This document shows, piece by piece, positions 24,521 to 32,000 of a stretch of DNA of 32,000 bases. Where the stretch lies: NCBI GenBank assembly GCA_016196885.1, contig JACPWU010000039.1, positions 1 to 32,000 of the forward strand, in the 5' to 3' direction. Below the pieces are notes generated by a model. That model ran no database searches and had not been told where the DNA came from. It was given only the letters and a program-made list of their open reading frames with translations. The translations under genes were made by a program, and so were the position numbers. Each line of letters opens with the position of its first letter. Within the stretch, counting starts at the first letter, position 1. The stretch is from Chlamydiota bacterium (lineage in GTDB: Bacteria; Auribacterota; JACPWU01).

Positions 24521-27500
24521 ATGAAAAAAACATTTTTTCGTCTAAAACATCCCTTTTTTTGTCTTATCCGCGTTATGGTTGCGCTCACCTTCTTCCTCAA
24601 TGATTTTTCATTTCTTCTGGCTCAAAACAGTTCTCCCGGGAAAGAAGGGGTATTAACTCCTTATCCTATTGGAAAAGAGGGAGTTATGTTAAAGAGGGAT
24701 GAAAAAATAAGTCCATTAGACAGGCCGTTGCATTTATCGGGGGATTTGGGAGAGATTCTTGAATTTTCACCTCTTGAGGGGCGTCCCATGGTTTATGTGG
24801 TGGAAGATGTTCACGGGGATAACGAGGTTCAGGAAAGAATAGAGGAAATTATAGAACATTTTCCTACTTCTGACTCTCATCTTCCAGCCATTTTTCTTGA
24901 GGGGGCTAGCGGGAAAATGGGGATGAGTTTTTTCAAGGGATATCCGGACAAGGAGGCATTGGAGCTCTGTCGGAAGAAATGGGTTGTGGAGGGAAAAATC
25001 AGTGGGGGGGAATCGTTCTTGGTGGGAGAGGGCGTAGAAGGGTATGGGGTAGAAGATAGGAAAGAATATTGGGAAAATATAGAACGGATGGGAAGGCTTT
25101 TGGAAGCAAGAGAATCTGAAGAAACCGAATGGAGGGTTTTAGACGAAATAGTACAAGGCTTAAGAAAGCAGATTTATTCTAAGGAGCTTCTAAAAGGAGT
25201 TGAAATGAGGGAGAGATATGAAAGAGGAGAGTTGGAGATTGGAAAATATATAAATCAAGTATCAAATATCAAAGATCAAAATGACAAATCAAATATTAAT
25301 TTCAATGATCTTTCGAGATCATCGTATGCAATGAAAGTTCTTTTTGTAGTCGCCCCATTTATGGGGCTGCCCGATGAATCGGGCGACTACAAAAAGAACT
25401 TTCATTGCAAATATTTAGCCATTCAAAGGTTTATCAAACTTCAAGCCTTTGAAGAAAAAATAGATCCGAAACAGGCTGAAGACGAATACCTTTCTTTTCT
25501 ATCTGAATTGGAAAAAAAACTCCCCAAGGAAGAGGTTAAGGAAATTTTGAGAAATGTATTGGAATATCGGCTCGGACGTCAGACGCAGGAAGAACATTAT
25601 GCTTTGTTAAGTCGATATCTGGATCAAGTAGAGGTTTCTCGCTATCAAAATTTAAAACTTCTCTTTAAAGAGACACAGATGATGAAGGGGATTGAGTGGA
25701 AAACAATGGAGAAGGAGTTGAATGAGTTGGAGGAGAAAATGCTCGACATGCTTGCCAAGAACGAGACACAGAAAAAATTATTGGCTGTAGAGGAAAAATA
25801 TAGAGTGTTGAAAAAGATTGTGGCCATGGAAGCAGGAAAAGAAGAGATACGAAAGTCGATATTTCAGGAGTACTGGACGGATATTGTGAAAGGGATCAAG
25901 GAATTGGATGGGAGCATCAAACTAGAAATTCCAAAAGAAAGTCTTGAAAAAGCAAGGGCCTTTTACGAACAGGTTTTAAAAAGGGATGCAATCATTCCTG
26001 AAAAGTTGATTCAAAAAATCGAAGAGAAAAATATTAGACAAGCCGTTTTGATCGTGGGGGGATTTCATGCCCAGGCTGTGAAAGAGTGCTTAAAGAGAGA
26101 AAAAATGGGATACTGCCTCATTGCTCCCAAGGCGGCTCAGAAAGACAGCCGGAACGCATATTTTAAAGATGTCAAAGAAATCTATCAGGCCAGACAGTTT
26201 TTAGCGCTTCCCACTTTGGATATGAAAATAGCTGAAAGGGATTGGATGGGGACAGGGAAGATTTTAGGAGAGTTGGGGGAGAATTTAATCAGCGAAACCC
26301 GAAAGAGTCATCCCATTACGAAAGAATATTTTGAAAAATGGATTGCGGATATAGAAGAAAGAGCTTCTGACACGGGAGAGGCAAAATTTTTAGTGGGGGT
26401 GGTGGCGGGCTTAAGAGAAAAACATTTAAGCAAGGGTGAAGAAGGCATAAAAGCAGATATTCCGACGGATGCCGAGATCATTCATCTTTTAAATAAAGGA
26501 GGAGTGACAGCAAAGCTGACGCTCATGTATTTGAGACAGGTGCTCACTCAAAGTGAATATCAAGCAATCTTGAAGAGAGTTGGAATGGAGGAAAAACCGT
26601 TGGTCGTGGCCACAGCCGAAGAGGGGGATGACGGAGGCTATATCGCAAAAGGCGAAGAGTCAAAGAAAGAATTTGAAGAGAATAGAAGGCTTGGACTATA
26701 TAAGAAGGCAAGGAATAAAGAGTTAGAGGAAGAATTTAGAGATCTCATTCGAGGCGAAGATGGAAGAATCCCCAAAGTCTATGTCATTCCAGCCCTTGTG
26801 AAGGGGAGAGAGGATTATTTATTGGGATATCGGGATATGAAGAAGAACATTATTTATGTAACAGAGGAGGTATTAGGGGTTTTACGCCGAGGGCCTCCGA
26901 GCGTGATCAGGGAATACTTTTGGCATGAAGCGCATGAGTCTTCAAATCCAGCCTATCATTATGAATTGATTGTCCAGCAGCAGAGGGAATTCCCAGAGAA
27001 TTATGAAGGACGCGGGTACGAAAAGGTTCAAAGTTCTAGGACTTGGGGAGGAGGAAATGAATTTTGGATGGACCTAAATTCATGGAAAATTGCCAAGGGA
27101 ATATTGGGAGAAAAACTTAGATTTGTGATTGATGGAATGATCAAAGCTCGAGGCCCATTCAAAAGTATGGAAGAGGCATTAGGAGCCTATCGGGAAATCT
27201 ATGGAGAACCCCCTCCAAAGGTTTGGAAGAAAATTCGTCAAGGTAAGAATCTTGAATATTATGAAAAGTGGATGATAAAATTTGGGATTAAAGACATGAT
27301 GGATTTAGTGCGATTAGAGTCCCTTATGCTCTATAATTCTGGAAGAAGTTGTTTGTCTTTTCTAGAAGAGGCTTATAGAGAGAACTTCACTTCCTATTGG
27401 CCCTATTTTCTAAAATTCACTAAACAATCTAAGGTGCTTATTTCCGCATGGGACGCGTTAGTAAAAATGAAGCCTATGATTGTGGATTTGGAGGTTTTAA

Positions 27501-32000: not shown

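Follow-up and report, generated by a model that had tools for sequence, protein, structure and literature searches.

A giant gene of an uncultivated PVC-group bacterium predicted to encode a single-chain AAA_5 ring protein related to midasin

Midasin (Rea1/Mdn1), the AAA+ protein of eukaryotic 60S ribosome assembly, carries tandem AAA_5 modules in a single polypeptide, and bacteria are without the 60S biogenesis that is its target. According to Zhang and Aravind (2012, PMC3495828), the chain of six tandem AAA+ modules came from MoxR early in the eukaryotes and split afterwards into dynein and midasin. In the MoxR-vWA systems an ATPase of the AAA+ clade with a helix-2 insert is coupled to a von Willebrand factor A (vWA) metal-site domain (PMC7159879), the ATPase being a homohexamer of single-module subunits and the vWA domain residing on a separate protein. 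The window analysed here, which is the whole 32,000-nucleotide stretch of contig JACPWU010000039.1 (positions 1 to 32,000 of the forward strand, NCBI GenBank assembly GCA_016196885.1, Chlamydiota bacterium, GTDB lineage Auribacterota), ends with the first third of a gene of 6,849 codons, which belongs to an uncultivated bacterium of the Planctomycetes-Verrucomicrobia-Chlamydiae (PVC) group.

With a probability of about 60% we take the product of this gene to be a bacterial relative of midasin acting as a remodelling motor, which would combine an N-terminal export or anchor segment, a TIKI-like module, two possibly zincin-like repeat domains, a single-chain AAA_5 ring, an HExxH region and a MIDAS-type vWA domain. 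Besides the tandem AAA_5 modules in one chain, it shares with midasin the alternation of odd and even modules and a long insertion at the helix-2 position of the module equivalent to AAA2, and its orthologues carry after the ring a vWA domain whose best match is the midasin MIDAS domain. It differs from midasin in being bacterial, in its N-terminal export or anchor segment, in the ~2,000 residues of unrelated modules ahead of the ring, in the Glu-Glu Walker B of its B modules and in same-type modules that are far more alike (180-230 bits) than those of midasin. Furthermore, Rea1 has a linker of ~1,700 amino acids (aa) and a D/E-rich region, whereas the orthologues have a ring-to-MIDAS spacer of ~500-700 aa and lack a linker of the midasin type.

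The helix-2 insert and the coupling to a vWA metal-site domain are shared with the MoxR-vWA systems, which also provide the second-best matches in the Protein Data Bank (PDB), and the vWA profile matches CobT. In contrast to their single module and separate vWA protein, the family of the window gene fuses two module types in one chain with peptidase-like domains and, in the orthologues, the vWA domain, and it is ~20 times larger; it therefore falls outside the definition of a MoxR-vWA system. Because two features of midasin (the long D/E-rich linker and the eukaryotic context) are missing and the MoxR definition does not apply either, the family is a variant apart from both.

A third group, the giant proteins of Omnitrophota (West-Roberts et al. 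2023 preprint; 2026 complete-genome preprint), has in common with the window protein the lineages, the great length and the multi-enzyme mosaics, and the N-terminal module ties the window protein to at least 30 such mosaics. These giants nearly always have signal peptides or transmembrane segments (West-Roberts et al. 2023; 2026 preprint), and in the 2023 preprint AAA_5 figures as one of many domains, named for the "Dockerin-type" giants. In contrast to the window protein they reach from 10,000 to more than 100,000 aa, with many transmembrane helices or with SecA-like or glycan-degrading domains. The giant classes of the 2023 preprint (more than 30,000 aa, many transmembrane segments, SecA-DEAD or dockerin domains) do not cover the window protein with its 6,849 aa and a single hydrophobic segment in aa 1-3,242, and a Pfam search of the window and the adjoining sequence detected neither a SecA nor a dockerin domain. 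Neither of the two preprints describes a midasin-like six-module ring with MIDAS, a TIKI-like N-terminal module or the repeat domain. The initial annotation, made from the letters of the window without database searches, had regarded the gene as a candidate for an undescribed system, and in the literature searched we found no paper describing the family. A description of a bacterial midasin-like protein was likewise not found there, although few subscription journals were covered and a prior mention is possible.

The AAA_5 modules and the open frame

The following features belong to the gene as a whole and to its ring-forming part:

24521..32000, + strand: first 2,493 codons of the giant gene (stop-free translation to the window edge)
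28916..30640, + strand: pre-ring region, aa 1466-2040, with 37-38% identity in orthologues
29969-30331, + strand: lid-like stretch within the pre-ring region, aa 1817-1937, resembling the lid that follows AAA module B1
30641..32000, + strand: AAA_5 module A1 with its lid, truncated at the window edge (Pfam, PDB sequence search)
30689-30715, + strand: Walker A of A1, GITSGGKST, aa 2057-2065
31232-31261, + strand: Walker B of A1, LILLDEANLA, aa 2238-2247; Walker A-B spacing 181 aa
Beyond the window: module B1, Walker A GQSGGGKT (aa 2522), Walker B ILALEELNMA (aa 2585), spacing 63 aa
Beyond the window: module A2, Walker A GGTSGGKS (aa 2966), Walker B VVLLDEMNLA (aa 3132), spacing 166 aa

The AAA_5 ATPase module that had been noticed after ~2,000 residues was recognised by Pfam as module A1 (E = 5.8e-13), and module B1, just past the window edge, matched AAA_5 with E = 2.6e-22 and has a dynein-type lid. 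Three modules were read directly, A1 in the window and B1 and A2 in the next 2.2 kb, and together with the six modules of the orthologues they bear out the expectation that more of them may lie downstream. The modules are of two types: in type A the Walker B is canonical (DExNLA) and a long insertion is found at helix 2, and type B is compact with a Glu-Glu Walker B, which probably makes it a slow or regulatory site.

In a sequence search against the PDB with aa 1857-2956, midasin was the best solved relative with E = 4.1e-77 and six significant stretches, followed by CbbQ/NorQ at ~7e-6, so that the comparison with midasin-type proteins drawn from the letters alone proved apt. The top database matches outside the N-terminal module were eukaryotic midasins as well. 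A protein homology search with the same aa 1857-2956 returned no match at E <= 1e-5 though midasins and the homologue P0037 match this region; this is ascribed to the way candidates are selected and is not counted as evidence. The 6,849-aa product of the gene, which the contig index records, likewise came up in none of the similarity searches. PADLOC and NCBIfam gave nothing useful, and matches to GvpN, EntA_Immun, DUF1722 and Tox-SHH were rejected as sub-threshold noise.

In Rea1 the alpha-helical insert of helix 2 is located in AAA2, where it fills the ring pore and is autoinhibitory (PMC11603028). The unaligned gap of ~110 aa in module A1 corresponds to the 96-aa gap in AAA2 of Schizosaccharomyces pombe Mdn1, and the distance between the Walker motifs (181 aa in A1 and 166 aa in A2 vs 63 aa in B1) indicates an insertion of the AAA2 type that is putatively helical. 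A degenerate AAA module ahead of A1 was also considered and rejected, its support being the lid-like stretch only in a region that has no PDB match.

A view of a whole ring is offered by the orthologue P0039, a protein of 6,443 aa that is truncated at both ends and fills an entire 19-kb Omnitrophota contig. It aligns with the query in collinear order across aa 1278-2951 (38% identity), carries six modules in the order A1-B1-A2-B2-A3-B3 with the same two Walker B types, and is collinear with a fungal midasin over four modules (E = 7e-64). The A1, B1 and A2 modules of the window gene are the positional orthologues of those of P0039 (408, 299 and 315 bits), and the module matrix separates the two types clearly, with 199-225 bits for A vs A, 179-231 bits for B vs B and 36-55 bits for A vs B. 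Even and odd modules of midasin alternate likewise (M2-M4 116 bits, M3-M5 135 bits). The B modules resemble the odd modules of midasin, and modules of the Planctomycetia type are closer to midasin than those of the Omnitrophota type. From the gene length, the recorded Pfam list and the orthologues we infer a ring of six modules, (A-B)x3, for the window gene.

That the open frame is a genuine coding gene in the organism's own codon style was confirmed. Retranslation agrees with the initial annotation in placing a TGA at 24455-24457 and the first ATG at 24521, which is codon 23 of the frame, followed by 2,493 sense codons without a stop up to base 32000, whereas the remaining five frames contain 89-174 stops each over 24455-32000. 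Based on the base composition such a run would occur by chance with p ~1e-77. An in-frame TTG at 24500 is the single alternative start. The codon-position GC content follows the order GC1 > GC3 > GC2, as in the flanking genes, and a codon-usage model trained on nine flanking genes yielded a log-likelihood of +0.28 bits per codon in the giant frame and values below 0 in the other five, so that the frame is coding-like both in periodicity and in codon bias. The frame is missing from the supplied list of open reading frames (ORFs) because this listing leaves out ORFs that run past the end of the source, which is the reason already presumed from its open end.

The full length was taken from a sibling assembly, NCBI GCA_016178005.1, in which an exact look-up of the neighbouring patatin gene identified contig JACOUD010000041.1 (51,135 bp). 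Its record calls a product of 6,849 aa from the same ATG (about contig positions 27915-48464), in line with the earlier estimate of more than 7.5 kb, and lists several AAA_5 Pfam matches and three further entries that are not itemised. By means of this contig the ORF was carried 2.2 kb past the window and is free of stops through residue 3,242; the predicted stop corresponds to about window-equivalent position 45,070. Scans of genome and metagenome contigs with the most distal 300 aa detected no relative.

The possibility that the frame is an artefact, produced by chimeric assembly, by the decay of a pseudogene or by chance in biased sequence, has to be considered since the source is a metagenome-assembled genome (MAG), misassembly is common in giant repetitive genes and a 152-bp indel polymorphism lies close upstream of the gene. 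The sibling contig differs from the window by three single-nucleotide polymorphisms and by the absence of these 152 bp from the upstream intergenic region; one of the three lies within the ORF (7.5 kb compared) and is synonymous. A Logan contig from SRR12113417 matches window positions 23401-25297 exactly, with the 152 bp included. Thus two to three independent assemblies concur, and the in-frame stop or frameshift by which the gene might have been disproved was not encountered. Furthermore, the internal repeats are only 33-40% identical and too diverged for assembly collapse, other organisms hold collinear orthologues with 37-38% identity and an identical module order, and neither the length of the open frame nor its agreement with the codon statistics of the flanking genes fits a chance origin. 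The artefact explanation is effectively refuted.

The search for orthologues proposed along with the gene was productive. A profile of module B, scanned against one genome per species, detected 36 loci, half of which (18) share 55-75% identity in module B and belong nearly all to Omnitrophota, the best being Candidatus Theseobacter exili (Auribacterota, PVC group). Six further loci from Omnitrophota and Planctomycetia MAGs share 29-40% identity, and the other 12, from MAGs that are mostly archaeal, Myxococcota or deltaproteobacterial, are ORFs of ~300-1,100 aa. A giant frame holds the match in each of the first 24 loci; it usually runs off the 20-kb locus and shows six modules where the sequence suffices. 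At least 24 loci of the family occur in the species-representative genomes of Omnitrophota, Auribacterota, Planctomycetia and unclassified MAGs. Judged from these matches the window gene is not an orphan but a member of a family that is widespread in Omnitrophota and other PVC-group MAGs.

One member, L010, is a complete ORF of 6,470 aa with a hydrophobic N-terminus, a TIKI-like module, ~2,000 aa of further sequence, the ring, the HExxH region, low-complexity sequence, the vWA motif DxSGS and a 530-aa tail. As in the window gene, the TIKI-like module, the repeat domain and the ring are found together in two other loci (L008 and L014).

A more distant single-chain group was observed in Omnitrophota and Planctomycetia MAGs (L026-L031), with six AAA_5 Walker B motifs, the vWA motif DxSGS and a conserved region HE(G)xHR…ED(P)RVN. 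Its modules score 137-143 bits against AAA3 and AAA5 of midasin, which is above the values of the window's family.

Modules before and after the ring, and the upstream surroundings

The part of the gene ahead of the pre-ring region is divided as follows:

24521..24628, + strand: export signal or membrane anchor, aa 1-36 (hydropathy scan)
24752..26200, + strand: TIKI-superfamily-like module, aa 78-560 (family alignment, AlphaFold model, sub-threshold Pfam)
Codons 24806, 24812, 24899, 25982 and 26066, + strand: key residues D96, H98, E127, R488 and H516 of the TIKI-like module
26636..27235, + strand: repeat domain copy A, aa 706-905, a new conserved domain
27236..28375, + strand: spacer between the repeat copies, aa 906-1285, its distal part from aa 997 aligning with P0037
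28376..28915, + strand: copy B of the repeat domain, aa 1286-1465, with ~40% identity to copy A

The ~2,000 residues before the ring had been described as Glu/Lys-rich and without a motif that could be placed. This needs correction, since the TIKI-like module, two repeat domains and the pre-ring region were distinguished in them, all with homologues in other proteins.

The N-terminus starts with charged residues (K2, K3, R7, K9) and continues with a hydrophobic stretch, aa 8-33, the only strongly hydrophobic segment within aa 1-3,242 according to a hydropathy scan. The relatives are alike, since hydrophobic N-termini were also found in most of the listed relatives of the TIKI-like module and in the ring-bearing orthologues L010, L016 and L023; a signal peptide or membrane anchor had been proposed for this position, and these findings support it. 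A recurring pattern was observed in the N-termini of the window protein (aa 20-36), the giants P0001-P0003, L016 and L023 (FFLNDFSFLLAQN, FITHDCSFTFAQD, FLTTDLFGPKAYAL, FLFTDILAFPSRLYAE), in several of which the hydrophobic segment is followed by a Thr/Asn/His/Tyr-Asp pair, a few hydrophobic residues and an end of the Ala-Gln/Glu type. This pattern may represent a sorting signal of a specialised kind, distinct from a plain Sec signal.

The segment aa 78-560 is read as a divergent hydrolase of the TIKI superfamily (Tiki, TraB/PrgY, ChaN, erythromycin esterases, RRSP of MARTX toxins, HopBA1) with an intact predicted catalytic set. The superfamily is defined by a core of parallel strands flanked by helices and by a 2His/2Glu motif with an additional basic residue, which in RRSP consists of E3900-x-H3902, E3930, R4001 and H4030 (PMC6254334). 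Across 32 aligned sequences of the window module there is no variation at H98, E127, G176, R488, G513, G514, H516 and P536, and 29 of them have D96, so that the pattern of an acid-x-His, Glu, Arg and His is found in identical residue order, with Asp in place of the first Glu, and the spacings H98-E127 (29) and R488-H516 (28) compare with 28 and 29 in RRSP.

A confident AlphaFold model of the module (predicted local distance difference test, pLDDT, 85; predicted template modelling score, pTM, 0.77) has alternating strands and helices at both ends, and this predicted alpha/beta core is interrupted by an all-helical insertion of ~300 aa (aa ~190-470). With the insertion removed, 9 of 21 members gave sub-threshold Pfam matches to ChaN, which is annotated as "Tiki superfamily" (best E = 1.1e-4), three to DUF5694 and two to Erythro_esteras; the sequence of the window itself reaches E = 0.14. 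Apart from the helical insertion and the Asp, the window module differs from the superfamily in its position, which is always directly after the N-terminal hydrophobic segment, and RRSP provides a precedent for a TIKI domain within a giant bacterial toxin.

Furthermore, ~30 giant proteins of 1,400-4,300 aa align to the query at aa ~60-590 only and always at their own N-terminus. Their named sources are Chlamydiota and Omnitrophota MAGs, and the Pfam domains further downstream differ widely, with phosphomannomutase, hexokinase, PTS enzyme I, SecA, metallo-beta-lactamase, HD and protein kinase among them. One of these giants, P0002 (2,630 aa, several transmembrane segments), was observed in the sequencing run that also holds the organism of the window, and it is a possible paralogue within that organism's genome.

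A self-comparison showed aa 706-885 and 1286-1453 to be ~40% identical, and these copies define a new domain of ~180 aa, for which there is neither a Pfam match nor a PDB sequence match. Its invariant residues in domain numbering, to which 700 is added for the protein, are I8, G11, E98, H102, H113, Q120, Y128, K159 and G160; in copy A those from E98 onwards are E798, H802, H813, Q820, Y828, K859 and G860, with E803 nearly invariant. The motif reads HExx[C/H/E] with a further His ~11 residues past H102, the position +4 being Cys in most of the aligned members displayed and the window copy A reading HEAHE. An "HExH" motif, as read by eye, was rejected since its second His differs between the copies. 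In a confident AlphaFold model (pLDDT 89.8) the domain forms a four-stranded sheet, a helix with the HE pair and a helix with the next His. A zincin-like metal site in this domain is put forward as a hypothesis only.

A word-indexed search with the middle region retrieved a single homologue, P0037, which stems from a low-coverage contig (L003) and is an orthologue broken by frameshifts, in which the order of the modules is unchanged and the repeat domain occurs in at least six copies. An exhaustive profile search of 1.84 billion cluster representatives detected the domain in 87 of them at E < 1e-3 and in 56 at E < 1e-10; many of these proteins have lengths of 2,000-7,357 aa, and in eight the TIKI-like module is present as well.

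Repeated units with the pattern "IYISE…DHEYTE…KRHA" were observed in the C-terminal tail of P0039 (aa ~4900-6443, L004/L011), which ends in a stretch "IFIPG…IYLD…LKEYLIHELTE". By their sequence these units look like divergent copies of the repeat domain.

Between the last module and the vWA motif the orthologues have ~500-700 aa, made up of an HExxH region (HEAMHR…EDGRIENW in L010) and low-complexity sequence of Gly, Gln, Lys and Glu. The vWA motif DxSGS was detected in 15 orthologue loci, and a profile built from 10 orthologues matched the MIDAS domain of midasin in the PDB (6i27, aa 4609-4845, E = 1.9e-11; 6qt8, E = 8.7e-11) and CobT with 7e-5. An identity of the HExxH region with DUF2201_N or CobT was considered and allowed no confident assignment. 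Because of the collinear orthologues and the length of the gene, the window gene is predicted to carry the HExxH region, the low-complexity linker and a MIDAS-type vWA domain after its ring as well.

Upstream of the giant gene, the 152-bp stretch at window positions 24283-24434 is intergenic and lies 87 bp before the ATG. It is present in the window and in the Logan contig from SRR12113417 and missing from the sibling NCBI contig, and a further Logan contig (L002) stops exactly at its boundary. It contains one weak sigma-70-like match (24332-24360), and a search of the upstream intergenic region against Rfam gave no match. The stretch has the look of an indel polymorphism of natural origin or of a small element, either mobile or repeated.

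The adjoining genes include small toxin-antitoxin-like ones, namely a DUF4258 gene (23770-24096, - strand) with a partner ORF of 73 aa and, at 18712-19125 and 18075-18560 (both - strand), genes for a PIN-domain protein with a small partner and a DUF2204 nucleotidyltransferase-like protein. A cluster at 14280-18039 (- strand) is predicted to encode a UbiE-type methyltransferase, a UbiX-like flavoprotein, a UbiA prenyltransferase and an amidohydrolase and looks like part of a menaquinone pathway of the futalosine type; a cytochrome c/cbb3-type gene is located further upstream.

Predicted action, location and origin

The mechanism proposed here is derived from the biology of midasin and the MoxR-vWA machines (PMC11603028, PMC7159879, PMC3495828). 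By analogy with both, the metal site of the vWA/MIDAS domain would capture a protein substrate, and ATP hydrolysis at the three canonical A sites would drive a conformational cycle of the ring and the attached domains, by which the captured substrate would be pulled on, unfolded or extracted. Nucleotide bound at the Glu-Glu B sites would have a regulatory role, and the insertions of the A modules may gate the ring as in Rea1. The peptidase-like modules (TIKI-like module, repeat domain, HExxH region) may cut the substrate or process the giant protein itself, and the presence of three such module types in one chain suggests that remodelling is coupled to cleavage.

Several points weigh against the remodelling motor related to midasin. 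The TIKI-like module reaches no curated Pfam threshold (ChaN, TraB, Erythro_esteras), and a Foldseek search of its model against the PDB yielded no structural match. In the repeat domain a canonical HExxH is missing, the second His not being conserved and the motif thus a variant, and the best Foldseek match, the minigluzincin selecase, is non-significant (E = 0.47, probability 0.30). The sequence of the window gene itself was read to residue 3,242, so that its six modules, HExxH region and MIDAS domain are predicted from the 6,849-aa length, the recorded Pfam list and the orthologues. Pfam gave scattered weak matches only for the HExxH region of the orthologues, and the C-terminal content varies within the family, with L009, L015 and L019 ending soon after the ring. 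Furthermore, with its positively charged start and the hydrophobic helix behind it, the N-terminus would direct most of the protein out of the cytoplasm, to a place that offers the ring no ATP.

Since the ring needs ATP, the bulk of the protein is most likely located in an ATP-containing compartment, which may be the cytoplasm of another cell after export or the bacterium's own cytoplasm with the N-terminal helix as a tether. We give the former somewhat less than an even chance and consider a tether at the own cytoplasmic face only slightly less likely; an action in the periplasm or outside the cell seems improbable.

A more specific form of the preferred explanation, which fixes both location and target, would make the protein an exported effector or polyprotein that is delivered into a host or prey cell via a Sec-type N-terminus. 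There the TIKI-like domain, comparable to RRSP, and the other peptidase-like domains would cut host proteins or free modules, and the ring, possibly acquired from a eukaryote, would remodel a host complex. The charged and hydrophobic N-terminus is found across the family, and the same N-terminal module precedes enzymes of the cytoplasmic type in other giants (hexokinase, phosphomannomutase, PTS enzyme I, kinase, SecA). The cysteine content is low. TIKI domains are host-directed endopeptidases in MARTX toxins, and HopBA1 is a structurally similar protein of the superfamily (PMC6254334). According to published work the PVC lineages that hold the family include predatory ultra-small bacteria, and the ring and the MIDAS domain are closest to a eukaryotic protein. 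However, the giant gene is adjoined by metabolic and toxin-antitoxin-like genes upstream and not by genes of a secretion system or chaperone, and the Leu at position -3 fits signal peptidase I poorly. We regard this effector role as a doubtful possibility.

Alternatively, the protein may be a chaperone of the bacterium itself, tethered to the inner membrane with its bulk in the cytoplasm, which assembles, repairs or degrades a large envelope or enzyme complex in the manner of MoxR-vWA systems (NorQ/NorD, CbbQ/CbbO, CobS/CobT, RavA/ViaA). Such a location suits the ATP need of the ring, the coupling of MoxR and vWA proteins is general in prokaryotes (PMC7159879), and a membrane-proximal degradation system of MoxR, vWA and peptidase components has been proposed (PMC3495828). 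The matches of the ring to CbbQ, NorQ and CobS and of the vWA profile to CobT are in agreement with this role, and the 2026 Omnitrophota preprint reads most long proteins as membrane-anchored with their bulk in the cytoplasm. However, the positive-inside rule gives the opposite orientation for the N-terminus, no candidate client genes adjoin the giant gene, and the restriction to a few PVC lineages with variable N- and C-terminal content is unlike a conserved housekeeping factor. Such a housekeeping function seems unlikely.

A bacterial family that has the ring, an insertion of the AAA2 type and a MIDAS domain matching midasin best stands in contrast to the published eukaryotic origin of the six-module chain (PMC3495828). 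The PVC-group proteins may represent the prokaryotic stock of eukaryotic midasin and, through midasin, of the dynein-type single-chain ring, instead of resulting from a transfer from eukaryotes to bacteria, an origin to which we assign a low probability. If true, it would move the origin of the six-module motor before the eukaryotes and into a PVC lineage. Either the machine came down to the eukaryotes from bacteria, or its eukaryotic form was acquired by PVC bacteria and rebuilt there, and both outcomes would be informative.

Independent of its origin, a ring in which three canonical Walker B sites alternate with three of the Glu-Glu type, as predicted for six modules, would be a natural single-chain analogue of the alternation of catalytic and regulatory subunits. 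Furthermore, the two domains defined here that lacked annotation, the TIKI-like module and the repeat domain of ~180 aa, provide handles on the giant proteins of these lineages, which are largely uncharacterised.

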